A stretch of DNA of 64,000 nucleotides from Candidatus Bathyarchaeia archaeon (GTDB lineage: Archaea > Thermoproteota > Bathyarchaeia > Bathyarchaeales > Bathycorpusculaceae). The stretch covers positions 224,001 through 288,000 of the forward strand of contig JBEKXL010000001.1 in NCBI GenBank assembly GCA_049512075.1. Direction: 5' to 3'. The first letter of the stretch is position 1. Each line of letters opens with the position of its first letter. Positions 5,072 through 63,596 of this stretch are shown here, piece by piece. A program made the translations under genes and the position numbers. Under the pieces are notes generated by a model, which was given only the letters and a program-made list of their open reading frames with translations, did no database searches and was not told where the DNA came from.

Positions 5072-5384
5072 ATGAATAGAGGGAAGATTCTCGTAGTAGG
5101 CGGGGCAGGCCTTCTTGGTTCAAGGCTGGTCCGTGCATTACTCAACGGAGAACACAAGGTTAAGGTTCTCGATACAAGGTATGGAGAGCTCGAAGACGTA
5201 AAGCCCCGCGCAAACCTTGGAATTTGTGGGCATAGGAACCGATGAACTGAGCAGAGGAATGGCAGACAAGCAAATTGTCAGAGAAGCGGTTGAAGATGTC
5301 TACGTTGTCTATCATTTGGCAATTAATTGGGATGGTGCAAGCTGGAAACATGAGATTCCTGTCGTAGATTTGTCAAGCGCGCGC
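5072..5384 (+). pseudogene. NAD-dependent epimerase/dehydratase N-terminal remnant (frameshifted, truncated)
   Basis: ATG 5072 gives MNRGKILVVGGAGLLGSRLVRALL; continues in another frame to AVEDVYVVYHLA and ends at GCGCGCGC 5377-5384. Confidence 0.8.
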
Positions 5385-5390
5385 ATGTTC

Positions 5391-7355
5391 TCACATTTTT
5401 TCGGGGGCCAAGATGCCTATCAGGTTGAGGGCGTTCCGAAGCGCTATTCGAAGTGCATGTGTCAGGGCGAGTCTTGCGCTGCTTAGTCCTTGCGGTTCGG
5501 CTCTTATCACCGGAAAAGCGTTGTAGAACGTGTTGAACTTGTCTGCCAAGGAGTTTGCGAAGTCGGCGATGAGGTTTGGCTTGAGGTATTCCGCTGCTTC
5601 TATGAACGCGTCTGGGAAGCTGGCCAGTGTCAGGATTATTTCGTGTTCTAGCTTTTCGTTTAGCAGCTCGAAGGCTGGCTCTCCTGTCTTTTCAGCTGCT
5701 TTCTTCAGGATGCTGCATGCTCTGGCGTGGGTGTATTGAATGTAGGGTGCGCTGTTCTTCTCGAAGTTCAGCACTCGGTCCCAGGTGAAAACTACAGGTT
5801 TCGAAATGTCAACTTCGACGAGCGCGTAGCGGACGGCGCCCAAGCCGACAAAGTCAGCGATTTCCTGTTTCTCCTTTTCTGACAGTTGCGGTGAGCGCTT
5901 CGAAACTTCTTCGTAGGCTCGTCTTACAGCTTCGTCCATGACTTCGTCGAGGGTTATGTAACGTCCTCTTCGACTGGACATCTTGTAGCCTGGAAGAGTT
6001 ACCAGGTTGTAGGCGAAGTGAATCAGGTTGTCCGCTATCTTGCCGTAGCCCAGAGCGTGCAAGGCTATTTTCAATTGCAGTTGAGCAAGACTCTGCTCCA
6101 TGCCAATAACGTTGATGACTCTTTCAGCTCTTTCAAACTTCCACAAGGTGTAGGCCGCGTCTCTGGTGGTGTAAAGCGTTGTGCCGTCTGCACGACCCAG
6201 TGTTAAGGGTGGAACTTCGTGGCCTTCTCTTATGCCAAGCTTGGCCCAAAGCCCCTGTTGCGTGACGACCTTTTCAGCGTCGAACTCCAAAACGCCGCCT
6301 TCAGCGTAGGTGTAAGGTGACTGTTTGAGTTTCTGGAAAACCTCGTTCACGTGTCCGCTCCACACAAAGTCGCTCTCCCAGTCCCACGAGTCGAATGAAA
6401 CGTCGATTCTGCCCAGCGTCTCCCTGAACCCTTTCAGGCACATCTCGCTGACCTGTCGGATTAGCTGTTTGGCCTTCTCTTCCTTCAACTCATAAGCCTT
6501 GTTCAATATCTTTATCGATTCTTCAGGATTCTTGTCCTTAACTATTCTATCCAGCAGTTCCTCGAAGAGAGTCGGATACTTGTCTTTCACCTCCGCGGCG
6601 ATGGAAACCCAATCGTCCAGTTCCCTCGTGATTTTGGCGATTTCCTCTGCGGCCGAAACGGTTTTCGCGTTTTCAAGCTCCTTCTTCAGCCGGTTTATTT
6701 CAACGAGGCAACTCGTGATAGTGTAGATTCTGCCGATGAACTGGTCAGGCTTGCCTTCTGGTTTGGGCTTTCCCAGTTTTTCGTAGCCGTAGGCGATGAC
6801 TGAGGTCTGGCGGCCCACATCGTCAATGTAGAAGTGGCGGCTCACTGTGTGTCCTCTGTTTCTGAGCAGGCGAGAAAGGGTGTCGCCGAGCACGGGGTTT
6901 CTGGCTGTTCCGATGGTGAGAGGGTGAAGGGGGTTTGCGCTCGTGTGTTCAACGATGATTTTCAAAGGCTCGTCCGTCTTGACGAAACCGTATCCAGCGT
7001 CCAAGCTTCTGGCAGATTCAAGGGTCAAGGCTGAGAACTTGGCGAAGTCAACATGGAAATTAACGTAGCCTCCTCCTGCAGCGGCAACACTGCTTATCAG
7101 GGAAAACTCGGAAGGGTCTACGGCCTTGGCAAAGCGTTCAGCCAGCGCTAAAGGTTTCTCTCCCAGTTTCTTGGCGAGCTCAAAACACAATGATGAAGCT
7201 AGTTGTCCAAACTCGGGGTTCGGGGGTTTCTCTATCGCTAAGTTGCCGATCTGGATTTCTGGAAACAGCTTCTTGAAAGCATGGGCTAGGCTCTCCTCGC
7301 ACTCTTTTCGGAAAGCTGCGAAAGGGTTCTCTGCAACGGGTGACGCTTTTTTCAT
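5391..7355 (-). CDS. argS: Arginyl-tRNA synthetase
   Basis: EHTSANPLHPLTIG (HIGH-like), KMSSRRG, PYIQYTHARACSIL. Confidence 0.97.
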   Translation of the reverse strand: MKKASPVAENPFAAFRKECEESLAHAFKKLFPEIQIGNLAIEKPPNPEFGQLASSLCFELAKKLGEKPLALAERFAKAVDPSEFSLISSVAAAGGGYVNFHVDFAKFSALTLESARSLDAGYGFVKTDEPLKIIVEHTSANPLHPLTIGTARNPVLGDTLSRLLRNRGHTVSRHFYIDDVGRQTSVIAYGYEKLGKPKPEGKPDQFIGRIYTITSCLVEINRLKKELENAKTVSAAEEIAKITRELDDWVSIAAEVKDKYPTLFEELLDRIVKDKNPEESIKILNKAYELKEEKAKQLIRQVSEMCLKGFRETLGRIDVSFDSWDWESDFVWSGHVNEVFQKLKQSPYTYAEGGVLEFDAEKVVTQQGLWAKLGIREGHEVPPLTLGRADGTTLYTTRDAAYTLWKFERAERVINVIGMEQSLAQLQLKIALHALGYGKIADNLIHFAYNLVTLPGYKMSSRRGRYITLDEVMDEAVRRAYEEVSKRSPQLSEKEKQEIADFVGLGAVRYALVEVDISKPVVFTWDRVLNFEKNSAPYIQYTHARACSILKKAAEKTGEPAFELLNEKLEHEIILTLASFPDAFIEAAEYLKPNLIADFANSLADKFNTFYNAFPVIRAEPQGLSSARLALTHALRIALRNALNLIGILAPEKM

Positions 7356-7443
7356 TTTGTTGAAGGTTCTCCAGCAGTCTAAGAGATGAGGTTATATTTT
7401 AATCTGGAAAATATCAACCTATCTGAAAAATGGGTGCGCGGCT

Positions 7444-8286
7444 ATGAGGACGAAAATCGTGTTTTCGGAGAAGTGTCTACGCTACGGGTCCTGGCACGTT
7501 GAAGGACCTGAAAGAGTCAGGAAAGCACATGAAATCCTGAGGAGCAAGGGCTACGAGTTCTTGAAGCCAGAACCAGCGTCAGAGGACGACTTGCTCAAGG
7601 TTCACGACCACGAGTACCTGTGGGCGGTCAAGAAGGGACTGGTCGAGGACGGCGACACCCCGGCCTATGACAACATTTTCGAGTACGCAAGACTCTCGGT
7701 CGGAGGAGCCATTCTGGCCGCAAATATCAAGGGGTTCTCGCTCATGCGTCCGCCTGGCCATCACGCGGGAAGGACTGGAATAGCGTTAGGCGCCGCCACT
7801 AGAGGGTTCTGCTATTTCAACAATATAGCCATAGCTGTGAAAAGCCTAGACAAACCCACTCTGATCTTGGACATCGACGGGCATCACGGAAACGGAACCC
7901 AAGAAATCTTCCAAGGCGACAAACAGGTAACATATGTCTCTTTGCATCGGCACCCGAACTATCCTGGCACAGGCACAGCCTCTGAAGGAAACTGCCATAA
8001 CTATCCTCTGCCACGAGATTGTGGAGACACCTTCTACGTAAAGACTCTCGACAAAGCGTTAGGCACCGTTGATATCGGCAGGTTTGAAGTCGTGGGTGTT
8101 TCGGCAGGGTTTGACACGCACGACGGAGACATAGCTTCACTTGGCCTGACGGCGAAAGGTTACAGGGCGATTGGAGAGAGGATTGGATCTTTAAAGAAGC
8201 CCACTTTCTTCGTCCTAGAAGGCGGCTACGAGGGTGAGAACGTGGGGAATGACATAGATCAACTTGTCAGGGGCTTTGAAGTCTAG
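7444..8286 (+). CDS. Histone deacetylase/AcuC-family deacetylase
   Basis: RPPGHHA, GFCYFNN, DIDGHHGNGT, SAGFD, LEGGY. Confidence 0.92.
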   Translation: MRTKIVFSEKCLRYGSWHVEGPERVRKAHEILRSKGYEFLKPEPASEDDLLKVHDHEYLWAVKKGLVEDGDTPAYDNIFEYARLSVGGAILAANIKGFSLMRPPGHHAGRTGIALGAATRGFCYFNNIAIAVKSLDKPTLILDIDGHHGNGTQEIFQGDKQVTYVSLHRHPNYPGTGTASEGNCHNYPLPRDCGDTFYVKTLDKALGTVDIGRFEVVGVSAGFDTHDGDIASLGLTAKGYRAIGERIGSLKKPTFFVLEGGYEGENVGNDIDQLVRGFEV

Positions 8287-8337
8287 CCGCTGTTCATCCG
8301 AAACGGATGCAACGAGTCGAAGAAGACTTAGATGACG

Positions 8338-11557: not shown

Positions 11558-12673
11558 GGAGCTTTGACTTGTCTCACCGGTGCAGTTTCATACGCCGCAT
11601 CTTTAGTGAACCCCAATATATCCAATGCAATTAGCCTCGGCTCGTCAACAATTCCAACAGCCGACATCCCGACTCTTATTGCGAACGGCGCTACCGTTGT
11701 GTGCTCTTTCACATCTTGAAGAACCTTTCTCTGTGAACCCAAAATAGCGCTCGCACGTGGCAGCGCTATTTTTTTCTATTTCTTTTAACCAACATATTTC
11801 CTAATGAATTCGTTTGGCCCTTGGTCGCTAAGGTCTTTTCTATGTTTACGGAAACAATTTAATTCAAAATTCGATGTTGGTCTCACGACAATCATCGATT
11901 AGTGTTACCGCGTAAGGTTCCTATTCGATTTTGAGTGAAATTTTAGTTTTCACACAAGCTCGAAAGAGTATGGAGACGTGTAGTTCCGAGTTCTGCAACC
12001 ACTCTCCTTCTGAAAATAATTTGGAAGGGAAATTCGCTTTTCTAAAAAAAGCGGTTAAACCCAAAGACTGTGTAAGAAAATTGAAATCTGTTTTTTATAT
12101 AGAAATGAAGGCGCGCCGCGCCCGCTTCCTATTTGAGACGTGAAGACTCGTTCTTATTTGAATTAAGGTTTTGAACCCTTTTGGGTTTAGGGACGAATGA
12201 GTTTAGACCTCTACCGGACTTGCGGGCTTGCGTCCGAGATAGACTTTCAGCATCATTTGCCAATTATTCAGACGAGTTGGAACCCAAGATAGCCCGATGG
12301 GAATTGAACTTCGCAGTGGGGACTTTGACCCCATGATTAAGACTTTGTTTCCTCATTAGAGGGTTTGTCGCGGTCTTCTCCATGGCCAATATGGGTTTTA
12401 TGCGACCCGGGTGTTATTGCCGCGAAATACGATGGATCTTTGTGCCATGGAAACATGGGTGGTCTTTTTAGTTTCCCAGGTTCTTTTTCTGCTATGAGAG
12501 TATTTCTTCCCTGCTCAAGATCTGTTGAACGCTGAATGTAGTACGATGCAAATTAGCGCGCGCGCTTTTTCACCGTTTTTTTCCCTATTTTTGTTTCGAG
12601 TCGTTAATCTTAACAATACCTGTTTTGATCCGTCAGACGAGCAAATTATTTTACTATCTAGCAAGATAAAGGC

Positions 12674-13513: not shown

Positions 13514-13664
13514 ATTCGTTTGCGCGCGCGCTTCTTGTCAAACGGCCTTGCTCGCCTTGTTAGCTCGCGCAGATTCACAGCCTATACAGTTGACTAGCGG
13601 GTAGGCGTCTGTTTCAGTTTGGTTGGCGTGCTTTGTCTTAGCGCGCGCGTTTCGGCACCGCATT

Positions 13665-15509: not shown

Positions 15510-15923
15510 ATGAAAAAAGGAAGGATCCAAAAAAAACGAAACCGGTGGTATGAGCAGACAGAACGCGCGCAGTCGCAGAGCACAAAGTTGTGGACTACAG
15601 GTGGTGAGACTCGCGCGCCTCAGTCAGTCTATGAAAAAGTTCAGAAGGAACTGACTGGTAAGAGTCACGATGAACTTCTTGAGAGGTTTGAGAAGCGCTG
15701 GAATTTTCTTTGGGAGAACAGGGCAAAAGTGAAGAAGACATATCCTAAATTCTCACAGGCACAAAACATGACCGATGAGGAGCTTATTGAAGCTATTGCC
15801 CAGATAGAATCCGACCTTGCAATCAACACTGACAGAGAGATCGCTATAGCTTTTCTACAGGACCAGAAGCGTTTTGAAGGCAGACAAAAAGGAAGAGTGG
15901 ATAAATCTTTCCGTGAACACTAG
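15510..15923 (+). CDS. Hypothetical protein
   Basis: GGAGGT upstream of the ATG; contains two short GC tracts, so may be mosaic. Confidence 0.45.
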   Translation: MKKGRIQKKRNRWYEQTERAQSQSTKLWTTGGETRAPQSVYEKVQKELTGKSHDELLERFEKRWNFLWENRAKVKKTYPKFSQAQNMTDEELIEAIAQIESDLAINTDREIAIAFLQDQKRFEGRQKGRVDKSFREH

Positions 15924-16160
15924 CAGGCAATCTCAAGCGCGCGCAACGTCGTTCCGGTTCAGCCTAGCCAAAATAGAACATGAACGCTCGGGCTTCTCCA
16001 TACACATCATTACATACATACCCAAGCACAGGTAAATAAGAAAATGTCAACCTCCAGAATTTAGCGAGACCCTAGCGCGCGCACTTACAAAGAGGAATTT
16101 AGGAACACGCTAGCGCGCTAGTTCGACAAACACAACATTAAGTTCGGGAAGCAACCAGAA

Positions 16161-16868: not shown

Positions 16869-17015
16869 GTCTTTCCTCCGTGGTCTTAGCCTGTCGTATT
16901 ACTATTATCCGATTTGACTCAATGCGCATCGGCACTTAAAACGTTGTTTCTTTGATTTTTGAATAGAAATCAAGCAAGCTCTAACTACGGAAAACCAGCG
17001 CGCGCTGGCATCTGA

Positions 17016-17088: not shown

Positions 17089-17098
17089 CCGCGCGCGC

Positions 17099-17461
17099 TA
17101 CACCTTAAGAAAGGACACAAGACCCGAATTAGTGCAAAGAGTCGGCATAAGAGTACGTGAGACAAACAATCTAGTTGAAAGGATGCACGGCACAGTCAAA
17201 GACAGAACAAGAGTAATGAGAGGACTCAAAAGCTTCGATTCTACAAAGTCACTTCTGGAAGGCTTCACAATTCACTACAACTATGTGAGACCACACCAAA
17301 GCCTAGGCGGAAAAACGCCAGCACAAGCAGCAAGAACACAAGCACCTTGCACGTGGAAAGGATTGATAGACGAAGCAACAAAACATGAAGCGCAACTTCT
17401 GGCCAAAACTACAAGTCCTGAGAAAACGGAGAAAAGAGAAATGGAGGCGGTAGTGAAATGA
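17099..17461 (+). pseudogene. IS6/IS240-like DDE transposase C-terminal fragment
   Basis: NNLVERMHGTVKDRTRVMRGLKS...HYNYVRPHQSLGGKTPA; begins immediately after the GC tract 17090-17098. Confidence 0.8.
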
Positions 17462-17626
17462 GAAAAGTCTTAGTTGCTCTTCCCGAAAATGTGGCCGATC
17501 TCTTGAACAGGGAGCGCGCGCGGAACGATAGGTGAGACTTGTTCAGACACCTTGCGAACAATAATAATGAGTTGGCTGTCAGAGAAAGGATATTTGACGA
17601 AAGGTGGGAAGCATGGCAAAGAATAA
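17458..17626 (+). pseudogene. Ribbon-helix-helix (CopG-like) gene frameshifted at a GC tract
   Basis: MRKVLVALPENVADLLNRE + cgcgcgc + (shifted frame) GTIGETCSDTLRTIIMSWLSEKGY. Confidence 0.65.
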
Positions 17627-30485: not shown

Positions 30486-30667
30486 AGTAGAGCCGCACTA
30501 TCCGTTTTTCTCTTCGTTGAGCCATTCGGGAACTATGACTGCGCGAATCAATTCCTGAACGGTAGAACAAGCAACTGCAAATAATGGTTAACAGTCTTGT
30601 CCGCGCGCGCTGCTTCGTTTTTTAGTTTCTTCTAATATCTGGACGGATAGTCCTTCCAAACTTGACT

Positions 30668-31213: not shown

Positions 31214-31262
31214 AATGAGACAAATCTTCTCTTATTCCTTAGCGCGCTGCCTTGTCCCTTTA

Positions 31263-31829
31263 TTATGTGTTGAAGTATGTTGGGGAGACTGCTTTGTCTG
31301 GTCTTCTGAGGTTTTCTGCTGCTTCTCTGTTCAGAACCAGGCACAGTAGGCTGTAGAGCGCGTAGGAAGCGACGTTTCTCAAGCCTCTGACCTTGTTTAT
31401 GGCTAAGCTGTACTGCGTCTTCAGGAAGCTGTAGACCGCTTCAATGTGAGGCCTCTTATGATACTCATTCTTCTGATCTTCTGGTCCATAGGTCCGAAAC
31501 TTCTTGTCTACCCTTAGAAGGCCTTTAACGTCGTGTTTCTGGTTAACGGGATAAGGAATCACTGCCTCGTCAACAGCACTTCTGAGTTTGCCGTCGCTGT
31601 ACTGGCTGTCAGCTATGACGCTTCTGAGTTTGGATCCAGACTGTCTCAGAATCAGCTTCGTCTTCTCCAGCATGTTCAGCGAGTGTTTCTTCTCGTTCTG
31701 GTTGGCAGAAGCAAAAGCGCAGGTCAACGGGAGCATGGTCTGAGAATCGATGGACAGGGCAATACTTAACCCAGACATCGTGTGCATTGTGTTCGGATCA
31801 TGTCGAACCCCCAAATCCATGAAGCACAA
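31263..31829 (-). pseudogene. IS4/IS5-superfamily DDE transposase C-terminal fragment
   Basis: ASANQNE, VIADSQY, YHKRPHIEAVYSFLK; N-terminal half missing. Confidence 0.78.
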
Positions 31830-33999: not shown

Positions 34000-34031
34000 G
34001 CGCGCGCGCTACTAGTCAAATCCAATACGTC

Positions 34032-34724: not shown

Positions 34725-34766
34725 ATGTTAGTGCGACATTATCTGCTTTTCCATGAGCGCGCGCGC

Positions 34767-35316: not shown

Positions 35317-35326
35317 CGCGCGCGCT

Positions 35327-36480: not shown

Positions 36481-36996
36481 ATGGAAGCGAAACTCGACGA
36501 GAAAGACATAGCAATCTTGGCTCTTGTACAGAGAGATTGCAAACTCACCGCAAGGGAGATTGCCAGAAAAATCGATTCGCCAATAACAACCGTTTTCGCG
36601 AAGATAAAGCGCATGGAAGAGCGGGGTGTCATAAAAGAGTATAGAGCAGTTCTTGATCCAAAGAAACTTGATTGCGGCACCACAGCTTTTATTCTGGCCT
36701 CCGTAACTTACGGGGTAAGGAACGAGGAGAAGCCTTTCTCACAGAGAGAAAGAGCGGCGGAAATTGCCAAGTTTCCAGAGGTTCAAGAGGTTCACATAAT
36801 AACGGGCGACTGGGACCTTCTGATAAAACTCAGAGCAGAAAGCGTTGACACAATAGGACAATTCGTCATTGACAAGCTACGGTTTGTAAGGGGAATCGAG
36901 AAAACTCTCACATGCATGGTCTTCGAAACCTGCAAGGAAACAACGGAAGTACCCCTCAGTGCGCGCGCTCCGTCACGCTTCAAAGAAAGGGAATAA
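36481..36996 (+). CDS. Lrp/AsnC transcriptional regulator
   Basis: LDEKDIAIL...HTH...HIITGDWDLL; divergent from asnA. Confidence 0.9.
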   Translation: MEAKLDEKDIAILALVQRDCKLTAREIARKIDSPITTVFAKIKRMEERGVIKEYRAVLDPKKLDCGTTAFILASVTYGVRNEEKPFSQRERAAEIAKFPEVQEVHIITGDWDLLIKLRAESVDTIGQFVIDKLRFVRGIEKTLTCMVFETCKETTEVPLSARAPSRFKERE

Positions 36997-40634: not shown

Positions 40635-40736
40635 GAAAACAGGACTGATGCGGCACAAAATCATCTGCCGACCTACGCGCGAAGCGCGCGCGAGAAAATG
40701 GCACACGAAGAGGTTCAATTCACTAAGAAGAGGTAA

Positions 40737-41267: not shown

Positions 41268-41468
41268 TCAATGCGCGCGCGGTCTATGTAGCTATCGAGT
41301 TAAATCCATCCGTAGATGAAAAGCGCGCGCGAATTCTCGAACATTAGTTTTAGACTTCCTTGCATCTGAATTATGAAACCAAGATTCCATATAATTTGAA
41401 GCAGATTGTTGACGAGTAATTCATAAGACTGAAAAATAATGGGCGCGGATTGCCATATTGTGGACTAA

Positions 41469-42962
41469 ATGACGGCGCTCACGTTCTACGGTGGCGTTAA
41501 TGAGATCGGCGGAAACAAGGTTCTCCTAGAAGACAACGGCACTAGAGTTTTCCTGGATTTTGGAATGAGCTTCGGCACAGTTAACAACTATTTTTCGGAA
41601 TTTTTGCAGCCTAGGAAATGTAATGGTTTGGGAGATTTCATAGAGTTCGGGCTTATTCCGGATTTGAAAGGAATCTACCGACTGGACTTCTTAAAACAAA
41701 TGGGGCGACCGCAGGAAGATCTGGAATTTCAAGGATTACTTTTGTCCCATGCTCACGCAGACCATGCGTCATACGTGAACCATCTTCGCGAAGACTTGCC
41801 CATTTATTGCTCGGATGAAACATATCACATACTCAAAGCAATCAACGACACAGGCAGCGGCAGCTTTACTGACATCACGGATTTGACGAAGTGCTTTGAA
41901 ACGTACGTTAACAAGAAGGGAGAAATAAGCAGAAAGACTTCACTGACCCATCCAGATATTGTTGTTCAAAGGGAATTTCACACCTTTAAGTTCAAGGAGA
42001 AATTCAAGATAGATCATCTAGTAATAGAGCCCTTCAATGTAGACCATTCCCTATCAGGAGCTACAGGCTACATAATTCATACTTCTTCAGGCACGATCGT
42101 TTATACTGGAGATTTTCGCTTTCATGGACGCAGGGAGAAAGAAACCGTAGAGTTCATGGAAGCATGCAGGGTTGCGAAGCCGGACTTATTGATCATAGAG
42201 GGCACACGGGTTGAGGAGGAGAGTTCCAAAAAGGAAGCAGAGGTAGAAGACGAGATTTACAGTATTTCGTCAAAGGCAAAGGGTCTTTCTGTTTGTAATT
42301 GGTCTATAAGGGATACTGATAGACTGCTCTCCTTTCTGAATGCTGCTAAGAAAATGGACAGAAAGCTTGTGATATCTCTCAAACAAGCATATTTGCTGGA
42401 AGAGCTGTCAAAATGTGCCGACACTATCACTCCAAGTATAGATGATGAAAACATAGAACTCTATGCTAGCAGAAAGAGTTGGGGGCTAATAGGAAGCGAC
42501 TGTTGTGAAAAGATGCGTAACCAGGATTACGATACTTGGGAACGTTCTTATCTTGACCGGGCAATCTGCTACAAAGACCTGAGAGATAATCAAGCCAACT
42601 ATCTGATGTTCTGCAGCAACTTTGACCTTAAGGAACTCGTAGACATCAAACCAACTGCAGGTTCGGTTTACATTAAGTCAGTTTGTGAGCCATTTGATGC
42701 CGAAATGGAGATTGACTGGGAAAGGATAGAAAACTGGATAAAGCATTTTGGCATGAATATCAGCTCAACTCACGTTTCTGGACATGCCTCAGGTCTTCAA
42801 CTGAAAGATTTCGTGGGACAAGTTGGCCCAAGAACAATAATCCCTATTCACACTGAAAGTGCGAAAACCTATGAAAAATGGTCGAGTGGAGTTCATATTT
42901 TGAAGGGGGCTGGTGAAAGTTATAGCTTGGAGCGCGCGCAACGAAACGTGCTTACCAATTAG
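41469..42962 (+). CDS. Metallo-beta-lactamase/beta-CASP nuclease (RNase J-like)
   Basis: GGVNEIGGN, SHAHADH, VDHS, YTGD, HVSGH, PIHTE. Confidence 0.88.
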   Translation: MTALTFYGGVNEIGGNKVLLEDNGTRVFLDFGMSFGTVNNYFSEFLQPRKCNGLGDFIEFGLIPDLKGIYRLDFLKQMGRPQEDLEFQGLLLSHAHADHASYVNHLREDLPIYCSDETYHILKAINDTGSGSFTDITDLTKCFETYVNKKGEISRKTSLTHPDIVVQREFHTFKFKEKFKIDHLVIEPFNVDHSLSGATGYIIHTSSGTIVYTGDFRFHGRREKETVEFMEACRVAKPDLLIIEGTRVEEESSKKEAEVEDEIYSISSKAKGLSVCNWSIRDTDRLLSFLNAAKKMDRKLVISLKQAYLLEELSKCADTITPSIDDENIELYASRKSWGLIGSDCCEKMRNQDYDTWERSYLDRAICYKDLRDNQANYLMFCSNFDLKELVDIKPTAGSVYIKSVCEPFDAEMEIDWERIENWIKHFGMNISSTHVSGHASGLQLKDFVGQVGPRTIIPIHTESAKTYEKWSSGVHILKGAGESYSLERAQRNVLTN

Positions 42963-46823: not shown

Positions 46824-46824
46824 A

Positions 46825-49300: not shown

Positions 49301-49348
49301 ATTTTTGGACTGGCATATTTCTTTTGGTCATAGACCATGGTTGGAAGT

Positions 49349-49926: not shown

Positions 49927-49989
49927 GCGCTCGCAACTGCGTATCGCGCACGCTTGAAATAGAAGCATTCACGCCTAGACGATAGGCAC

Positions 49990-50561: not shown

Positions 50562-50883
50562 TTAATCCACAGATAGACTTTGTGCAGATGCTCCATTTCT
50601 AGTTTGGCTCTGCATCAAGCGGGACCGCGGCGCTGCGATTTTCGAGCTGAGCTCCATCGGAAATAGCGTGCGCTTGATTGTGGGTTCGGCTTTTGGTGCA
50701 CCGTCCGACCGCGCGCGCTGATTCGGAGACATCCTGCCCACACGTTGGACAGTTCTTGACACCCTCTTTCAATAATCTGTCATGCGGCAATAGCTCATTT
50801 CTTAGTGCGCATTTCACCGTAAGCATTATTTAAGATCGGCCAATATAGAAGCCATTCATAGCGCGCGCTAAAAGGTCCTTTGG

Positions 50884-52966: not shown

Positions 52967-52972
52967 AAGGTT

Positions 52973-55502: not shown

Positions 55503-55529
55503 CGCGAGCGCGAGCCAAGTTGACTATCC

Positions 55530-56507: not shown

Positions 56508-56588
56508 CGCACTACTGTTCACAGGGCAAAGATGGCTCTACATCCAAATGATAAGCTGACTACAGAGAGATGCGCGCGCGCTTTGACG

Positions 56589-57299: not shown

Positions 57300-57314
57300 A
57301 ATGTGCCTATTGTT

Positions 57315-58697
57315 TCAAGAACTATATAATCTCTCAGGGATTGGTAATTCTTTAAGCGCACTACTTTGTAGCCTTATGAAGTTGTTTGCGGCTCTTTGGG
57401 AGTTCTTTGCCAGCCAATCTCTGGCGAGATCACTCCTGAGATATTCTAGTAGGTCTCTTATTCTTGAAACATGCTTGGGAACAATATAATACACTGAGTG
57501 CCTAGGAATAAATAGTCCATCTCCATCCAGCCAAAAGTAGGGCCGAGCGGCAATGTCCTTACAGAGTATTTTAGAGCAAAGGAGATCCTTCATCGGAGGG
57601 TTTTCATGAAACGCATACCAAGGTTTCTTTCTGCAGCAAGATCTTTGTTTGAGCCTCGCAGCAATATGCGGTTGAGACAGATACTTACCAAAATCTCCGA
57701 GTTTCTCAAAAGGGATCAATTCGCCTTGTTCATCATAGGGTACAAGGATAGAGTAAAGCGAAGGCAACTTTTCGTCTTCATAACGCAATTCCCTACCAGA
57801 AATTGTAGGGTATGCGAATGCTTCAAGATATGAATCCAAGGTGTCAGTTCTTTTAATAAAGATCTCATCGGAGCCGGTTGCTACGCCACAACTAATTCTA
57901 ATGCAAATATCTTTCAGTTTATGGTTCATACAGATATTTACGCTACCATTCAACGTTGGCAGCCATCTTTCGCCATTCTTAGGCAGGGTCGCTTTCTGGG
58001 TTGTTCCATTTCGATAACTGACTTCAGTTTCTCTTAAAGGTGGTGAGTTCTCGACAATTGTAATTGTCGGGTAAGTTGTCAAGCCACTGAAAGCATTCTC
58101 TTTGAGGAACTCAATTTCTCTTACTTGCATCCCGGCCATTATTCGGCGGAGAGGTCTTGAGGTTTCTACGTAGGTGTATTTCTCAGGCGTAATGAATACA
58201 AGCCGTCCATCTTTTTTGAGAATCTTCAAAGCTTTTTCAAAGAAAAGCAAATACAAATCAAACCTGCTTCGCGCCGTTTCATACAAGGGCTTGTAAAGGC
58301 GTTTCTCCTCTTCAGAGAGTTGAAGTATGGAGACATAGGGCGGATTGCTTATAATAAACTCGTATTCTCCGTCGCAAGTCGCCAAGAAGTCGCGTTCTTC
58401 AACTCTAACTTCAGGGTATTCTCTAAATCTGTTTCTGGCAATCGACCCTAATTTAGGGTCAAGCTCCACGCCTATGATTCTCGGAAGCGGGTTTTTATGT
58501 TTTTGGCACCATAGAATAATACCTTCGATAAAATCTCCCGCGCCGCAGCCAGCATCGAGAAGTGTGTCACTAGATTTCGGCGCTCGATCCTCAAACAATT
58601 TAGCTACCATATGTTCTACTATCGTGGCAGGAGTCTGAAAGTGGCCTTTGGCAGTCAACAAAGCAGCATCCCCTAGGCAATTTTCAGCAAGTGACAT
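57315..58697 (-). CDS. Cognate N6-adenine methyltransferase (PaeR7I/TaqI-like)
   Basis: LDAGCGAGDF, SNPPY, DLYLLFFE, GVATG. Confidence 0.9.
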   Translation of the reverse strand: MSLAENCLGDAALLTAKGHFQTPATIVEHMVAKLFEDRAPKSSDTLLDAGCGAGDFIEGIILWCQKHKNPLPRIIGVELDPKLGSIARNRFREYPEVRVEERDFLATCDGEYEFIISNPPYVSILQLSEEEKRLYKPLYETARSRFDLYLLFFEKALKILKKDGRLVFITPEKYTYVETSRPLRRIMAGMQVREIEFLKENAFSGLTTYPTITIVENSPPLRETEVSYRNGTTQKATLPKNGERWLPTLNGSVNICMNHKLKDICIRISCGVATGSDEIFIKRTDTLDSYLEAFAYPTISGRELRYEDEKLPSLYSILVPYDEQGELIPFEKLGDFGKYLSQPHIAARLKQRSCCRKKPWYAFHENPPMKDLLCSKILCKDIAARPYFWLDGDGLFIPRHSVYYIVPKHVSRIRDLLEYLRSDLARDWLAKNSQRAANNFIRLQSSALKELPIPERLYSS

Positions 58698-58789
58698 TAA
58701 CAAACAAGAAAGCGATCTTGAAGCATATAAGTGCGCTTGCACTCTCAGCACGCACTTGTGTTAGAGGTTACACTTTGCGCGCGCGCGCG

Positions 58790-59128
58790 ACTTGTTAGGT
58801 GCGAATTGAGAGCTCTGTAAAGCATGCTTCCAATCGCTCGTACTTCGTCAGCCTTCTTGTTGGAGATAGTAGTTTCTTGGGGGTTACCAGAGATAATGCC
58901 GTTTAGGAAGCCTCTTTCCATAAGATCCCAGTCAGTGAAGTAAATGTACTCATCTACGATAAAGTAGGGCATTCCAACTCGCTTCTCCCTCAGTTCCTCC
59001 CAAGCCGCATCCTTACTCACTTTGAGGCGCCCTTTGTAACATGGGAATTTTGAATAATCGCGTTCAGGAGTGGACTCAAATAGATTGCTAAGATACACTC
59101 GTTTCACCTCGGTCCAACATTTTCTCAA
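58790..59128 (-). pseudogene. N-terminal fragment of a gene truncated at a 13-nt GC tract
   Basis: Overlaps the upstream gene; frame runs into RARA encoded by 58777-58789. Confidence 0.55.
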
Positions 59129-60377
59129 TCTCTTTTCGAATAAGTTTGACTCGATCGCTTTTCCTAAAGACTGTGCTGACTAGGGCATACCCAGATTCTG
59201 ATATTTTTGGGACTACCATGCCTATGATTTCCAACAAGATTAACTCAACGATCGGAGCTAATACTGAAAGAAAGGTGTTGTATGCTAAAAAGACTACGAT
59301 AGCAACGATGACTGAAGAAGCAAAAGGCACAAGCCCTTTCACGACAGAGATGTAATACTTTTCGATGATAGCGCTATTGATCAGGTCGAATAGCCCGACC
59401 TTATCAACTCTGGTATACTTGTCCGCCTCCTTGCTTCTTTTGAACTCTTGATACTGTTCGATTTCGTGTGCGGGAACCGTGTAAATACGCTTGAATCCGC
59501 AGTTGCACAATGACAAGGCAATAGTGGAAATGAACGCCACAGATGATGGCTGTCTTTGCAGTGTGACAACACTGTCTTCGGACAAAGTCAGCGATAAGCG
59601 ATAATTGTCTTTCATCTTCTCGATTTCTATGTCTGGAGTGCGTTTGGCGTCCATATAAAGAAAGAAGCTGGAAAGTCGTTGCCTGAGTTTGCGTTCCTCA
59701 ATCCCGTAGCCTTCTTTCTTGAAATAGTCAACTATTCCGAAAACAATGCGTCTGTTGCAGTGAACTGACAACGTGATGTAAGGTCTGAGCAGGAGGGCTT
59801 TGATATCTTCTGATTCGGCTGTATCCGACAGTTTCTCTATTTCTGCCTTTGTACTGTCATAAAGAGACTTGAGGGGTTCATTCAAACGAAGGGCTGCGAG
59901 ACTGTACAGCAGCTTGATCTTTGTCTGGGTACTACCAATGTTTTGAAATTGGTTCGAAGCGGTAACAGCGACTTGCGAAGCTCTCGCTCTTATGTCGCTC
60001 AGAGTGTTGTCTCCAGGTGGAGGATCAACCAAATCATAGAAGAATGCCAAACTGAAAAGATACTCGACGGCGAATGACAGGCGTTTCGTTTCGCTCTCTG
60101 CTTTGGCAAGGACACTCTCGAGTCTGACATGAACCTGTTCTCTCTGGTCATCGAACTGCTCAAAAATAGCGTAAAGACCCAGCAAGTAAGGCATAAGAAA
60201 CTGCCTGTCGCTACTCCAACGTTTTTCAACTTTGTTGACAAGATCCTCAAGATGACGAGTGTAGCCAACATCGAGTGAGCCATGCAGACAGGTTAGCACT
60301 GCAATCGCAAATAGGCTATTTACAGCCTCTTCTTCTGTCTCCCCACTCCAAGAATTCTCATCTTTCTTGACGAACAA
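59088..60377 (-). CDS. Alpha-helical protein with two C-terminal TM helices
   Basis: 429-aa ORF; hydrophobic LVPFASSVIVAIVVFLAY and VLAPIVELILLEIIGMVV. Confidence 0.7.
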   Translation of the reverse strand: MFVKKDENSWSGETEEEAVNSLFAIAVLTCLHGSLDVGYTRHLEDLVNKVEKRWSSDRQFLMPYLLGLYAIFEQFDDQREQVHVRLESVLAKAESETKRLSFAVEYLFSLAFFYDLVDPPPGDNTLSDIRARASQVAVTASNQFQNIGSTQTKIKLLYSLAALRLNEPLKSLYDSTKAEIEKLSDTAESEDIKALLLRPYITLSVHCNRRIVFGIVDYFKKEGYGIEERKLRQRLSSFFLYMDAKRTPDIEIEKMKDNYRLSLTLSEDSVVTLQRQPSSVAFISTIALSLCNCGFKRIYTVPAHEIEQYQEFKRSKEADKYTRVDKVGLFDLINSAIIEKYYISVVKGLVPFASSVIVAIVVFLAYNTFLSVLAPIVELILLEIIGMVVPKISESGYALVSTVFRKSDRVKLIRKEIEKMLDRGETSVS

Positions 60378-60593
60378 GATGCGTTCTTCAAGCTCCTGAA
60401 GGAAACTGTAAACCTCCGTGTGAAGGCAAATGTCTTCAGAAATACGGCTTCCCTGCCATAATTATTCTGGCATGATAGATTATCGTGAAACTCCTTTTAT
60501 CATTTGCGGAAGAACTGTCCTACACATACGCTCATGGGTTCCAAGAAGAAAGAGCAACTGGCGAGGTTTCTGTTGTCCGAAAACAGCGCGCAC

Positions 60594-60743
60594 CTATTTT
60601 TCGTGCCTATCCAAATATTCTTGGACAGCAGCCTCTACCTCAATGCTTGCTTTTTTTGCGGCACCGTGCTTTCTGACCACATATGTTAGAAAGCGTTTCC
60701 AGAGTTCGTCGTCTACAAGTATTGTCGTACGGCGTTTGGGCAT
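60594..60743 (-). CDS. Ribbon-helix-helix regulator (49 aa)
   Basis: MPKRRTTILVDDELWKRF...EVEAAVQEYL. Confidence 0.75.
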   Translation of the reverse strand: MPKRRTTILVDDELWKRFLTYVVRKHGAAKKASIEVEAAVQEYLDRHEK

Positions 60744-60759
60744 TTCATATAACCACACA

Positions 60760-60812
60760 GATGTATGAGCATAAAACTTATAAGCCTTGAGCATATAATC
60801 ACATAAGCACAT
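60760..60812. promoter_or_regulatory. Divergent promoter with short repeats (candidate RHH operator)
   Basis: TGAGCATA twice, CACATA repeats and an AT-rich CTTATAAG between divergent genes. Confidence 0.35.
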
Positions 60813-61074
60813 AGGTGTTGAGTAATGACGTCATGCCAGGACTCGACAGATCTTCTCAATCAGAGACTCGTTGAGATAGACACTACGCCAGATCTAAGCA
60901 AATCTAAGCCTGTTGTTACACTCAAGCAGGAGGAGATTGACAAGTTAATCAGACAGTTTGAGATGATGAAAGAGGCATGGATTGCCTTGAAATTTAATGA
61001 GACAATATGCGTAATTTGGAAAGATCTGATTTTTCTTTTTTCGACAAACCGCGAAGAAGAACTTTGATAATGGG

Positions 61075-62415
61075 ATGATCGTTGATGAACTATCATTTGC
61101 ATTTTCAGGAGAAAGGGTTGAATTGTTAAAGCCCATCCATCAATTAGACGAAGCAACTTGTCCCATATGCGGAAACAAAGTACTGCGAAATGAACTAGAA
61201 ATAGCTGAATCCAACATGAAGTTTCTTCAGGAATGCTCTGCAGAAGGCACTTTAGATGAAGCGTTCACCATTTTACGCATTATATGTGAAAAAGTTCCGG
61301 GAATCACCCTTGAAGTTTCAAACAAGTCAGCCCTTGACGAGTATTTCAAGAAAATCCAAGAAGAAATTGCTCGTGTGGTCATAAATCCAACTGCAACGTT
61401 CGTTAGCAATGCAAATCAGGTTATGGGACGATTGTCTGAGTTGATAGATAAAGTTCCATTAGGCATCAGAAACGAATTCCTAGAAATAAAGAGAGAACTC
61501 GCCGGGAAATTAGAGAGCTTGGAGAAAAACTCGACTGAAACTCCTTTGACGATTTTCAACCAGATGTTCAACCCACTAACGGAAAAACTTGGGCGGCTCA
61601 TAGAAAAGCTTCCTAAGGACATTAGAGAAGAATTTAAAGAAGTTAAGACGGATCTTCAAGAGGAACTAGTCGAAATCAAGAGCAACGCGGAAAAATCCAA
61701 CACCGCAGTTGGCAGTGAAGTCAAGGAACTTCGTGACAGCATAAACAGTTTAATCAACAAGCCTTCGGTTCTTGGTCGTGCCGGAGAAAGCGTTCTTGTA
61801 GAATCCTGGGGGGTTCAATTTGCACAAGACGTCGTAGATCAGAAAGGAGGACCAGGAGAACCTGACGCGTTGGTAATTCCATACTTGGGCATGAACGGTG
61901 GTGAATATGGGCGGAAAATCTCCTTGGAACGAAAAGCCGGAGGTCAGAAGTATTCAGGAAAACACGTTGAAGAAGTATGTCGACACGCACGGAAGTATGG
62001 AGCTTCCCAGGCAATGTTGATTTACGACAGCAGGGCAAACTTGCCAAGCGAATTTCCTCCAATAAAGGTGCTATTCAGGCCACAACAAAAACTAACTATA
62101 GCAGTAGCGTGCCTTGATGAAAGATCTTGGGTGACTGCGAGGGAGATACTGGAAGTCCTCCAAATTGTAACGCCTCCTGACGAGAAAACTGAGAATAGTA
62201 TTGACTTGACCGGGTTAGACAAGGCCATCGCGGATATACATGCTGTCAACGCAATCATCGACAAATTGAGAAAGACGAACAATGCTGCATTGAGAAACTG
62301 TGAAGGAACGCGAACATGCATAGAAGAGCTGGAAGGGTCAATATTAAGCTATCAGAATAGACTTCGAAAAATCCTCGAAAAAGAAATTGTGGAAGTGATT
62401 TCGGTTGACCGCTAA
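61075..62415 (+). CDS. Coiled-coil + PD-(D/E)xK protein (RmuC/DUF2130-like)
   Basis: CPIC, long coiled coil, GRAGE...EPDALV...LERK. Confidence 0.65.
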   Translation: MIVDELSFAFSGERVELLKPIHQLDEATCPICGNKVLRNELEIAESNMKFLQECSAEGTLDEAFTILRIICEKVPGITLEVSNKSALDEYFKKIQEEIARVVINPTATFVSNANQVMGRLSELIDKVPLGIRNEFLEIKRELAGKLESLEKNSTETPLTIFNQMFNPLTEKLGRLIEKLPKDIREEFKEVKTDLQEELVEIKSNAEKSNTAVGSEVKELRDSINSLINKPSVLGRAGESVLVESWGVQFAQDVVDQKGGPGEPDALVIPYLGMNGGEYGRKISLERKAGGQKYSGKHVEEVCRHARKYGASQAMLIYDSRANLPSEFPPIKVLFRPQQKLTIAVACLDERSWVTAREILEVLQIVTPPDEKTENSIDLTGLDKAIADIHAVNAIIDKLRKTNNAALRNCEGTRTCIEELEGSILSYQNRLRKILEKEIVEVISVDR

Positions 62416-63596
62416 ACAGAGGGGTTTACGAAGGTTTTGATGAATAGCGCGCGCATGACGCGCGCGCGGGCGACAGTAGGAGATATCATAAATATATCAA
62501 ATGTTTCTGTTCCACGCCGAAGAATTTTCAGGTCACCTTTCGATAGCAGATTTGGGCATTTAAGATGTGTATCTACGAATATGATGTTTTCTCGATTCAA
62601 TATGTTACCTCCTCATAGCAAGCAGATTCAATATTGAAACAATCATATTTGTAGATGCTTTTTCCGCTCAAGAACACGCCCGTTGTGCTTACTTGAGTTT
62701 ATTCAATTCTCAGAATTAATCGGACTAGTGCACCTGAAAAATGAGCTTGTCTAAAAGGACATGCTGCCCCTATTTCATCGTGATCCAGGCAGGGCATTTG
62801 AACAACATCTTAACTTGATCGCAAGCTAAATTTTGACAAACTAAGGTTACTATGACAATAAAGCGATTATTTCTTTCAGGACCGATTTGAGTTCAGCGAT
62901 TGCTGAGATTAAAGCCACTTTCTCTGATTCTTCAGTAGAAGGATTGGACAATGTACCTCTTGCTTCTTTTGGTTTAGGTGCTTTTTTCATTCGTTGCTAA
63001 ACTCCACTTCGTTAGCTTTATAGAGCGAACTTTGCATTCAGTTAGATTCAGGAATTTGAAACGGTTTGTGTAGGAATGGCATGACGCAATCCTATTTGTG
63101 TGTATATGTTTATATGCCTATATGAGTTATCTGCCTTATAAGTTTTACCTTAAATTGCCACTTTACTCAATTCACTTTCGAGTCCTTTACTGCCTGTTTT
63201 CTTGGCAAAAATAATGTTTGCACTAATTAGCGCCCCCAGAATCCAGAAGTGCAAATTATGTTCGCATTTGCTGGAAGCTTCATTTGTCGAGCAACTTTCT
63301 GAAGGAATATAACAATGCTACTCTTAGGCGGGACGTTAACAACTTGACTCCTAAAGAGGACTTCCATTCGGAAAAAGGTAAATAACCACCAAGTAGCGCG
63401 CATGCCTTTTCCGAAAATGGTCAAAAATGGTTTTAATTTCGTTTCTAGATTCCAGAAGCCAGTCGCCACTAAAAACATGGACCTCTGAGAAGTTCGACAA
63501 TGCTTCCAAAACCCAAAAAAGAATATAAACCATTTTTGGCCAATTTAGGAACACACATGCGCGCTATTAATTAGAATTTGATGGCTTCAAAAAAAC

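Follow-up and report, generated by a model that had tools for sequence, protein, structure and literature searches.

Why does one stretch of a peat archaeon's genome (the window, meaning all 64,000 nucleotides analyzed) carry so many short runs of strictly alternating G and C, and where do these tracts come from? All 24 starts listed in a first-pass annotation proved to be maximal alternating G/C runs, 8 to 13 nt long, and the palindrome TAGCGCGCGCTA is present at 50859. Fewer than one such run had been expected by chance at a G+C content of ~42%; the window is actually 44.3% G+C, and for runs of at least 8 nt that expectation holds under a first-order Markov model (200 simulations; mean 0.57, maximum 3) but not under a third-order one (200 simulations; mean 2.59, maximum 9). 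Eight of ten sites described as shorter or broken tracts are 6- to 7-nt runs (15237, 20923, 31242, 33618, 49065, 60586, 63396, and 63559), whereas no run of at least 6 nt occurs at 49927 or 55502. The window holds 10 additional 6- to 7-nt runs, one of which (26696) lies inside the type I restriction-modification (R-M) methylase gene.

As proposed, the tracts lie between genes or in last codons: 20 of 24 are outside roughly called ORFs, and the other four (34757, 36961, 42932, and 58777) are each no farther than about 35 nt from where an ORF ends. As to the claim that none falls inside the intact operons, type I R-M (24183-29228) and McrBC (52973-55502) have no run of at least 8 nt, and the beta-CASP/SNF2 operon has a single one (42932), in the final codons of its first ORF. 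The epimerase fragment does end exactly at a tract, but the IS6 transposase fragment, said to do the same, lies between two tracts at distances of 33 and 52 nt. The gene labeled a type IIG MTase encodes a 478-aa N6 methylase and adjoins that of an XhoI-like endonuclease.

5072..5376, plus strand: NAD-dependent epimerase pseudogene, frameshifted N-terminal fragment (PF01370, E 2e-5, residues 6-36)
5377..5384: (GC)4 tract at the truncated end of the epimerase fragment, 6 nt past the ArgRS stop
12556..12565: (GC)5 tract, intergenic
13522..13531: (GC)5 tract, intergenic
13641..13649: 9-nt tract, 15 nt past the stop of minus-strand ORF 13665-14552
15937..15944: (GC)4 tract, 13 nt past the stop of ORF 15510-15923
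16075..16082: (GC)4 tract, intergenic
16998..17005: (GC)4 tract, intergenic
17090..17098: 9-nt tract; the IS6 transposase fragment lies 33 nt downstream
17132..17461, plus strand: IS6/IS240 transposase C-terminal fragment, 109 aa (PF13683, E 4e-14; PF13610 profile positions 90-134 of 139)
17514..17522: 9-nt tract, 52 nt past the IS6 fragment
30602..30610: 9-nt tract, convergent intergenic region
31241..31829, minus strand: IS5/IS1182-like element remnant, with one terminal inverted repeat (TIR), A-GCGCGC-TGCCTTGTCCC, plus the transposase's C-terminal 188 aa (PF01609; 85% identity to the reference transposase, residues 180-348)
34000..34009: (GC)5 tract, 22 nt past the stop of minus-strand ORF 34032-34724
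34757..34766: (GC)5 tract, 18 nt from a short ORF's 3′ end
35317..35325: 9-nt tract, 1 nt past the stop of a tRNA-synt_2 paralogue
36961..36968: (GC)4 tract, last codons of an Lrp/AsnC regulator gene
40684..40692: 9-nt tract; a 6-nt run precedes it by 2 nt
41273..41281: 9-nt tract, 5 nt past the stop of ORF 40737-41267
41323..41331: 9-nt tract, 41 nt from the preceding one
42932..42939: (GC)4 tract, last codons of a beta-CASP/metallo-beta-lactamase gene
50710..50718: 9-nt tract, intergenic, spanned by an independent contig (run X6)
50861..50868: (GC)4 tract in TAGCGCGCGCTA, 15 nt before ORF 50884-52326, spanned by an X6 contig
56572..56581: (GC)5 tract between convergent PLD-nuclease and XhoI-like endonuclease genes
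58777..58789: 13-nt tract, the genome's longest, inside the 3′ end of minus-strand ORF 58745-59128 with the N6 methylase start 25 nt downstream, spanned by an X6 contig
62447..62454: (GC)4 tract, 31 nt past the stop of ORF 61075-62415
62459..62468: (CG)5 tract, separated from the preceding one by ATGA
63394..63566: intact 170-nt MITE, TA-GCGCGC-ATGCCTTTTCC ... GGAACACACAT-GCGCGC-TA

In a sister genome (G002, about 95% identity), the intergenic region of the epimerase fragment holds an unrelated 497 nt instead. Tract 35317 is one end of a 1.63-kb segment with 72% identity to C3:51586-53221 elsewhere in the same genome, and tract 36961 lies 9 nt from its other end. The MITE is repeated at high copy number in four peat metagenomes (depth 576-2852), where its loose ends fall at 63394/63396 and 63564/63566.

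The abundance of tracts extends to the whole 2.73-Mb genome (G000), whose commonest octamer is GCGCGCGC: we counted 581 alternating G/C runs of at least 8 nt versus 36-78 in Markov-1 and Markov-3 simulations, an excess of about 10- to 15-fold. Lengths cluster at 8 nt (n = 284), 9 nt (n = 186), and 10 nt (n = 105) and then cut off abruptly, with six runs of at least 11 nt; A(GC)nT occurs 115 times with n = 4, 50 times with n = 5, and never with n = 6, and out-of-phase GC joints number 1-3 of each kind. Although ORFs make up 83% of the genome, 429 tracts (74%) lie outside them, at densities of 0.77/kb in divergent, 0.93/kb in tandem, and 1.17/kb in convergent intergenic regions. They are concentrated 0-30 nt 3′ of stop codons (33, 25, and 23 tracts in successive 10-nt bins versus about 10-15 farther away). 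More than 90% are solitary; short unique fragments enclosed between two tracts also occur.

The first-pass annotation overlooked the many IS5/IS1182-like insertion sequences (1.1 kb; transposase domains PF01609 and PF05598) and MITEs (130-500 nt) with (T)A-GCGCGC...GCGCGC-T(A) ends that crowd the genome, comprising about 50 TIR pairs; 25 full copies from other Bathyarchaeia all terminate in GCGCGC-TGGCTTGTCCC. Such elements are a simpler source of tracts than a tailing enzyme. For about six of 20 informative element ends, the sister's junction shows just a bare GC run or tract, in some cases with other DNA after it; for about 10-12 it shows no GC run, and the hexamer therefore arrives with the element. 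In one clean pair with both flanks conserved, a 440-nt MITE in the sister (G002 C1:16602-17042) corresponds to a bare (GC)5 with identical flanks at C14:8000.

Comparison with the sister confirmed that tracts mark junctions, lying exactly at indel, deletion, and replacement breakpoints. Among tract sites with both flanks found in the sister, 34 of 84 were exact structural (non-collinear) breakpoints, compared with 19 of 556 random intergenic positions (12-fold; Fisher p = 2e-20), 14 of 397 GCGC runs, and 14 of 260 runs of 6-7 nt. Seven deletions of 137-4,430 nt were resolved (C1:89124, C2:167086, C13:24739, C16:27815, and G002_C6:84038, 84546, and 204403); in each, A/AC/T plus (GC)4-5 bridges the junction, and the intact sister has no tract at either breakpoint. 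For two truncated genes, purM-like and XPD-like, the intact sister homologues lack tracts at both breakpoints. About 10 sites are clean 6- to 13-nt insertions, mostly without duplication.

Our tentative reading, to which we give a probability of roughly 45%, is that (GC)4-5 tracts are scars left at junctions by mobile-DNA activity, most likely fused GCGCGC termini of the IS5/IS1182-like insertion sequences and MITEs. Elements would insert into dispensable DNA, frequently accompanied by deletions and leaving no target duplications. A precedent is reported from Escherichia coli, in which an IS5/IS1182 insertion occupies the junction of a 62-kb deletion and lacks a target duplication (10.1101/2024.06.02.596822). 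The element body may later be lost by joining of its two ends, which, because GCGCGC is its own reverse complement, are also direct repeats. If the ends pair in register, overlapping by 4 or 2 nt, (GC)4 or (GC)5 would result, which would explain the lack of out-of-phase joints and the near-absence of (GC)6. A fused-end origin would also explain why T-A precedes both element ends (T at −2, 76%; A at −1, 86%) and solitary tracts (36% and 58%). Selection would purge scars that fall within genes, so that the survivors lie in intergenic DNA and in defense or accessory islands such as the window.

The distribution of the trait bears on this origin from both sides. It is present in all five genomes of the genus and in a few related Bathyarchaeia, seven genomes in all having >150 octamers (G000, G001, G002, G003, G004, G018, and G021). 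Six of the seven carry the TIR pattern (57, 22, 35, 34, 4, and 7 times), compared with 0-2 times in genomes with ≤7 octamers, and high-identity transposase copies occur in the genomes that carry it; insertion sequences of tract-poor G014 and G013 have other ends and an 8-bp target duplication. Counting against fused termini, G018, G030, and G023 have tracts (227, 53, and 51 octamers) but neither the TIR pattern nor matches to the elements' transposase; PF01609 has no match in G030 or G023, and the one PF01609 element examined in G018 has ends without GC. In 100 kb of G018 there are 13 tracts but not one repeat; these genomes are MAGs, in which repeats frequently go unassembled. We also weighed against fused termini that tracts exceed element ends 10- to 60-fold and nearly always stand alone, that only 44 of 1160 tract flanks fall in an anchored repeat family, that target-site duplications are not enriched around solitary tracts (where left TA and right TA are mutually independent), that there is a single clean MITE pair, that 29 of 73 tract sites differ from the sister by substitutions alone, and that plain microhomology joining should favor (GC)3, whereas the main products are longer. 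On this reading, too, the seven deletion junctions demand at least two steps, insertion with deletion and then element loss.

The mechanism first proposed, in which host end joining adds a self-complementary (GC)n linker at breaks and so joins any ends and captured fragments, with GCGCGC element ends being secondary, is unlikely but the best of the alternatives. It accommodates the seven bridged deletions, the clean short insertions, tracts in genomes without GC-ended elements, and unique fragments between two tracts, and G000 has a complete LigD-PrimPol/Ku/ligase-phosphoesterase operon elsewhere than in the window. That operon does not track the trait, however: Ku is present in three of the seven tract-rich genomes (G000, G002, and G004), was not found in G001, G003, G018, and G021, and is present in tract-poor G010, G020, and G040. 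Moreover, the T-A bias beside tracts parallels that of element ends, and the exact positions of a MITE and of other GC-ended segments are taken in the sister by a bare tract. We know of no enzyme that yields a strictly alternating product stopping at 10 nt, and untemplated tailing, by a primase-polymerase or terminal transferase-like activity, is not supported and leaves both properties unexplained.

We consider it improbable that the tracts are preexisting sites that persist, either as element targets or as breakage hot spots (microhomology driven, site specific, or provoked by Z-DNA), with DNA gained and lost at their edges. Several loci have the expected form: four pairs show L-a-[tract]-b-R against L-[tract]-R (C3:154941, C21:34246, C23:24227, and G002_C2:202276), two segments have a tract at each end where the sister carries a single tract (G002_C2:114087 and C33:10339), one flank of a tract common to both genomes has lost a segment (C11:10106), two different elements begin at one GC run (C4:14725), and two deletions directly join native GCGC runs (C16:38285 and C1:34485). 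Opposed to these are the approximately 10-12 element ends whose flanks adjoin no GC run in the sister, the seven deletions without a sister tract, and inconsistent implied target duplications (2 nt at C14:8000, 6 nt at C33:10339); such a model also leaves the origin of the tracts unexplained.

Slightly less probable still is a selected or repair-driven motif (resembling HIP1, the cyanobacterial highly iterated palindrome; a 3′-end/terminator signal; or intergenic Z-DNA) that coincides with breakpoints via gene borders. The tract octamer is palindromic, commonest in its genome, and lineage specific; tracts pile up just past stop codons in G018 as in G000, and the 29 substitution-only differences could include conversions toward the motif. 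Nevertheless, divergent, tandem, and convergent regions all hold tracts, at no fixed distance to starts or stops; only 21 of the 73 sites are kept as runs of at least 8 nt at about 95% identity; tracts bridge intragenic deletions (purM-like and XPD-like); breakpoint coincidence is nucleotide exact and 12-fold over intergenic controls; and no C5-methyltransferase (PF00145) match exceeds the cutoff in G000 or any genus member.

An assembly or amplification artifact can be dismissed for practical purposes: G000 was assembled as a MAG from short reads into 86 contigs, many terminating in the repeat, but all five genomes of the genus and other MAGs share the trait, 21-22 tracts are kept at orthologous G002 sites, and contigs from X6, a run from another study, cover 50278-51379 and 58324-59082, and hence three tracts, with zero differences. 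From X1, possibly the source sample, a 14,305-nt contig spans 49255-63559.

All 24 tracts (perfect alternating G/C runs of at least 8 nt) that the first-pass annotation had located in the window are maximal runs, 8 to 13 nt long. Simulations of the window (G+C, 44.3%) yielded 0.57 chance runs of at least 8 nt (maximum, 3) when dinucleotide statistics were kept and 2.59 (maximum, 9) when tetranucleotide statistics were kept. Among the 10 tracts that had been listed as shorter, 8 proved to be runs of 6 to 7 nt, and the other 2 did not. Twenty of the 24 lie outside our rough ORFs, and the remaining 4 are at most about 35 nt from an ORF 3′ end. The long operons had been described as free of tracts; this is correct for the type I R-M and McrBC systems, but the SNF2 operon has one, in the last codons of its first ORF. 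The relevant window features are as follows:

24183-29228, defence island, type I R-M (HsdS/M/R)
41469-48860, defence island, beta-CASP nuclease and SNF2 helicase operon
52973-58751, defence island, McrBC, PLD/NgoFVII-like nuclease, and XhoI-like endonuclease with N6 methylase
31241-31829, IS5/IS1182-like element remnant
63394-63566, MITE, depth 576-2852 in four peat runs

Assembly artefacts do not account for the tracts: contigs from an independent peat metagenome run of another study (X6) are identical to the window over positions 50278-51379 and 58324-59082. A 14,305-nt contig from run X1, possibly the source sample, covers 49255-63559. No excision joint was found in metagenome contigs mapped over window positions 44001-64000. 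At 63390-63566, contigs of X1, X6, and a third peat run (X7) loop the end of the MITE to its own start (“goes back 177”; depth, 220-1296), which could be due to tandem copies, circularization, or an artefact of the repeat graph.

The source genome (G000) is a metagenome-assembled genome (MAG) of 2.73 Mb in 86 contigs, as is every genome compared here a MAG. It contains 581 tracts of at least 8 nt versus 36 to 78 expected from first- and third-order Markov simulations. Runs of 4, 5, 6, and 7 nt number 8834, 2105, 669, and 195, and those of 8, 9, 10, 11, 12, and 13 nt number 284, 186, 105, 3, 2, and 1, so that the 8- to 10-nt runs form a discrete class with a sharp stop. No octamer is commoner in G000 than the palindrome GCGCGCGC, with 646 sites. 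The base just before the tract is A, and the base just after it T, in 58% of cases each, with an excess of T at −2; we found no flank conservation beyond positions −2/−1.

Based on gene calls from a rough longest-ORF heuristic (83% coding), 429 of the 581 tracts lie outside ORFs (74% intergenic), which corresponds to about 0.9 per kb of noncoding and 0.06 per kb of coding DNA. A mild pile-up occurs in the first 30 nt past stop codons. Tract density is 0.93/kb in tandem and 1.17/kb in convergent spacers; a terminator or promoter signal was rejected as the main explanation because tracts are found in every intergenic type, including divergent spacers (0.77/kb), at no fixed spacing. Anchored repeat families account for only 3.8% of tract flanks, >90% of tracts being solitary in unique DNA, and the distances between neighboring runs did not clearly point to elements with near-complete internal deletions. 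Neither bacterial nor archaeal SSU rRNA was found in the G000 MAG; the host of the window is an archaeon with deoxyhypusine synthase, and the close relatives of G000 are labelled Candidatus Bathyarchaeia from peat and soil. The window carries two deoxyhypusine synthase paralogues, tail to tail with overlapping ends, at 2439-3392 (+) and 3376-4437 (−) (PF01916; E = 5e-107 and 5e-90).

Comparison with a sister genome, G002 (93 to 97% identity over conserved DNA; 1.47 Mb, or 64%, of G002 was used), supports the claim of the first-pass annotation that tracts mark junctions. We examined 575 G000 tracts, for 84 of which both 120-nt flanks reach the G002 site. Fifty of these sites are collinear and 34 are not, compared with 19/556 noncollinear sites for random intergenic positions, 14/397 for intergenic GCGC runs, and 14/260 for 6- to 7-nt runs (Fisher P = 2e-20, 2e-18, and 1e-13, respectively). 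The 34 noncollinear sites comprise 18 with >30 extra nt in G002, 5 small indels, and 11 with nonadjacent flanks. Sites at which only one flank was found were also commoner at tracts (102/186 versus 216/772). At the 50 collinear sites, G002 retains a run of at least 8 nt in 21, and the run is broken through substitutions in 29. In the other direction, both flanks of 46 G002 tracts are present in G000: 22 of these tracts are conserved, 11 are broken by substitutions, 5 show small indels, 2 have 5 to 30 nt more in G000, and 6 show large differences. We did not adopt repeat boundaries as the main argument: 105 of the 581 tracts lie at repeat ends and 5 are spanned, but this partly reflects paralogue homology that stops at gene ends beside the tract.

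Seven deletions, of 137 to 4,430 nt, are bridged by A, AC, or T plus (GC)4-5, with both breakpoints free of tracts in the sister. Two of the seven lie within genes that G002 has in intact form: a purM-like gene (G000:C2:~167033-167317; 362 aa in G002), which is a pseudogene in G000, where 10 nt replace 604 nt in frame and the 5′ part is disrupted, and an XPD-like helicase gene, which has lost its first 776 nt in G000. In four further pairs, the sister holds the tract within extra DNA (L-a-tract-b-R versus L-tract-R). In another four, the extra segment adjoins a shared tract or is enclosed by two tracts. Two deletions directly fuse native GCGC runs. About ten sites are clean insertions of 6 to 13 nt, two of which (C15:13623 and C4:142263) show a 4- to 5-nt duplication around the tract. 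Genome-wide, we found no excess of 3- to 4-nt direct repeats around solitary tracts that would indicate target-site duplication; 5-mer direct repeats numbered 2 to 3 versus 0.6 expected. At G000:C13:35384 and G000:C7:25557, tRNA 3′-end-like fragments (GGTTCAAATCC...) of 25 to 45 nt lie between two GC runs.

G000 also harbors a family of mobile elements with GC termini. About 50 pairs of terminal inverted repeats (TIRs) of the form (T)A-GCGCGC-(A/T)(T/G)G..TGT(T/C)CC bound MITEs of 133 to 500 nt and 1.1-kb elements, and many G000 contigs terminate in this repeat. The 1.1-kb element is 1,087 to 1,114 nt long, with inverted repeats of about 17 to 20 nt, and contains a 348-aa transposase ORF that matches PF01609 (E = 5e-12) and PF05598 (E = 1e-8). 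We assign it to the IS5/IS1182 type, which its DDE_Tnp_1 domain, N-terminal DUF772, size, and TIRs fit. All 25 full copies in other Bathyarchaeia end in GCGCGC, and the run is 8 nt in 5 of the 50 ends; no consistent target duplication was found among these 25 copies. The first 763 kb of G002 yielded no clean pairs of element presence and absence. For 20 element ends, the flank is conserved in the sister, which has the same end in 2 cases, a bare GC run or tract at the corresponding junction in about 6, and no GC run in about 10 to 12; these last cases indicate that the hexamer belongs to the element. A second GC-ended repeat (CACAACATTACCACGRTTGTTAC) is restricted to the genus (4 of 41 genomes) and was not found in the relatives G018, G030, and G023. 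Another repeat family of ~285 nt (reference copy, G000:C3:152456-152738), which may be a MITE, an ncRNA, or a promoter module, contains TTGTAATGTCAGATGTAAT twice, about 95 nt apart, and is present across the genome as about 10 full-length copies and 30 partial ones; its copies are cut off at differing points, with a GC tract at the truncation.

We favor, tentatively and with a probability of roughly 45%, the explanation that tracts are scars of transposon termini. Two palindromic GCGCGC termini would be joined once the body of the element is lost, leaving a tract. If the hexamers paired in register, a 4-nt overlap would yield (GC)4 and a 2-nt overlap (GC)5, and neither out-of-phase joints nor (GC)6 would be expected unless joining were blunt. 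The A(GC)nT counts (115, 50, and 0 for n = 4, 5, and 6) and the 1 to 3 out-of-phase words are consistent with such in-register joining. The tract (GC)4-5 after T-A also equals the outermost nucleotides, GCGCGC preceded by T-A, of the resident element; T(−2) and A(−1) occur at 76% and 86% of element ends and at 36% and 58% of solitary tracts. At one site, a bare (GC)5 in G000 (C14:8000) corresponds to a 440-nt MITE with the same flanks in G002 (G002_C1:16602-17042), an unpolarised difference. To account for deletion junctions, the element would insert along with a deletion, without target duplication, and would be lost later, the loss being an inferred step. An IS5/IS1182 element landing with a deletion and without target duplication has been observed in E. 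coli C (10.1101/2024.06.02.596822).

Several observations speak against scars. The C14:8000 site is the only clean MITE-versus-tract pair that we found. More than 90% of tracts are solitary, and a target-duplication signal is absent. Microhomology joining would be expected to yield mainly (GC)3, which does not dominate. Finally, three genomes have tracts with neither the TIR pattern nor a relative of the transposase, as the distribution of both features shows. Across 41 related genomes, GCGCGCGC has 168 to 646 sites in all five genus members, 439 and 227 in two other genera of the family (G021 and G018, respectively), 14 to 53 in seven genomes, and 0 to 7 in the remaining 27. The TIR pattern occurs 57, 7, 22, 4, 35, and 34 times in G000 to G004 and G021, respectively, 5 times in G024, and 0 to 2 times elsewhere; high-identity transposase copies are found in the same genomes. 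Thus, six of the seven tract-rich genomes have the TIR pattern; tracts also occur in G018, G030, and G023, which lack it, although MAGs may miss repeats. In these three, tracts occur in the same T-A context, yet no relative of the IS5/IS1182-like transposase was found, and G030 and G023 have no PF01609 match. In 100 kb of G018, we counted 13 tracts and zero repeats. Import of a tract-dense 12-kb segment of G018 from the genus by horizontal gene transfer was ruled out, as it shares only 64 to 73% identity with G000, G002, G004, and G021; the segment is native DNA rather than a recent import. Tract-poor G014 has 11 PF01609 matches; the sole copy examined, on G014:C13 (locus L157 1014-2021), measures ~1.0 kb, has the ends TGCTGTGTTGAAT, and shows a target duplication of 8 bp (CTTGAATC).

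Because of this counter-evidence (tracts without elements, solitary tracts, and lack of duplications), there is some room for the boldest alternative, GC-linker end joining, which we nevertheless consider unlikely. Here, a repair process in peat Bathyarchaeia would heal double-strand breaks by inserting a defined, self-complementary linker, (GC)4-5, at the junction, and this palindromic adaptor would stitch together ends of any kind as well as captured fragments and mobile elements; GC-ended IS/MITEs would have evolved to ride on the process, which could be host encoded or domesticated from the IS5/IS1182-like transposase. G000 does encode a complete nonhomologous end-joining (NHEJ) operon at C16:~5124-8191 (locus L206 3625-6692), consisting of a LigD primase-polymerase, Ku, and an ATP-dependent ligase fused to a 3′-phosphoesterase (PF21686, PF02735, PF01068, PF04679, and PF13298). 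However, a search of the 41 related genomes detected Ku in just 6: 3 of the 7 tract-rich ones and 3 that are tract poor. The first-pass annotation had proposed, as one of two possible sources of the tracts, a GC-tailing end-joining enzyme; the Ku/LigD operon exists but does not co-occur with the trait and thus does not bear out that proposal. A HIP-like or 5mC motif would fit the hyperabundance of the octamer, but no PF00145 (C5 methyltransferase) match was found in G000, and genus members gave one subthreshold match. Footprints of the TA-duplicating Tc1/IS630 type were rejected because PF13358 is present in just 2 of 41 genomes and, at tracts, TA on the left is independent of TA on the right.

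No known parallel is a full match. Cut-and-paste DNA transposons can leave excision footprints or solo-terminus remnants; that of Tc1/mariner is TA plus 2 to 3 terminal nucleotides from each end. We know of no report of footprints for IS5/IS1182-type transposases, and a literature search that covered few subscription journals found none for archaeal IS. Like transposon footprints, tracts are short stretches of an element's outermost nucleotides, share the flank preference of element insertion sites, and may occur where a relative still bears the element. Unlike footprints, they lack target-site duplication, bridge deletions of up to several kilobases, outnumber elements 10- to 60-fold, and occur in three genomes with no detectable elements. 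End-joining filler and N nucleotides are known from Ku/LigD NHEJ, polymerase-theta-type templated insertions, and V(D)J N/P nucleotides. As in NHEJ filler, a few extra nucleotides absent from both parental breakpoints bridge deletions, and G000 has the Ku/LigD operon, but tract filler is always the same alternating 8 to 10 nt, and Ku does not track with the trait. REP and attC sites are imperfect palindromes of 20 to 140 nt with conserved arms. Tracts resemble REP/RAYT and integron attC sites as hundreds of extragenic palindromes that bound DNA segments in cassette-like fashion, but lack a conserved 20- to 40-nt imperfect palindrome, only T-A being conserved beside them.

The E. coli deletion junctions (10.1101/2024.06.02.596822) likewise involve a DDE_Tnp_1-type element of about 1 kb, a large deletion, and no target duplication, in line with our 25 full copies; there, in laboratory E. 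coli, the whole IS stays, whereas in these uncultured archaea only 8 to 10 nt identical to fused termini are seen. HIP1 (GCGATCGC) of cyanobacteria is also a lineage-specific palindromic octamer, many-fold overrepresented and the most conspicuous word of its genome, and has been linked to orphan methyltransferases that recognize its core, as outlined in the abstract openings of two papers (PMC4390886 and PMC5861425). For the tracts, no C5 methyltransferase was found, 74% are intergenic, and turnover is fast; they mark rearrangement breakpoints, which those abstract openings do not mention for HIP1 (PMC4390886 and PMC5861425). The same literature search, with few subscription journals covered, found no description of GCGCGCGC tracts in archaea or of Bathyarchaeia IS/MITEs with GC ends.

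A single 8- to 10-nt word flags about 40% of the rearrangement breakpoints that can be resolved between two archaeal genomes of 95% identity, and tracts provide a nucleotide-precise, sequence-readable record of accessory and defence island assembly and of gene truncation in a lineage of soil and peat that is uncultured and globally abundant. If they are transposon scars, archaeal cut-and-paste turnover would occur on a scale undescribed in the literature searched, and past transposition events could be counted from tracts. If linker-adding repair were true, it would represent a new mode of DNA end joining, a sequence-defined “linker ligation” form of illegitimate recombination, that would build defence islands such as those of the window. 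Either way, tracts are of practical use in Bathyarchaeia metagenomes as markers of mosaic junctions, of the breakpoints of pseudogenes, and of DNA that was recently mobile, and they point to an IS/MITE family that breaks short-read assemblies.

Three further loci in the window deserve mention. A 1.63-kb segment at 35322-36952, which carries a class II aaRS-like gene (PF00152), is paralogous to G000:C3:51586-53221 (72% identity), and the ends of the window copy lie 0 to 9 nt from the tracts at 35317 and 36961. A 157-aa ORF at 49990-50463 (−), whose sole domain is the C-terminal RMMBL of a beta-CASP nuclease, probably represents a fragmentary paralogue of the 3′ portion of 41469-42962. The insert with the epimerase fragment, which has the tract at 5377 at one end, shows at its opposite end a run of ten Gs (5016-5025) beside a degenerate tract (GCGTGCGC at 4996-5003).
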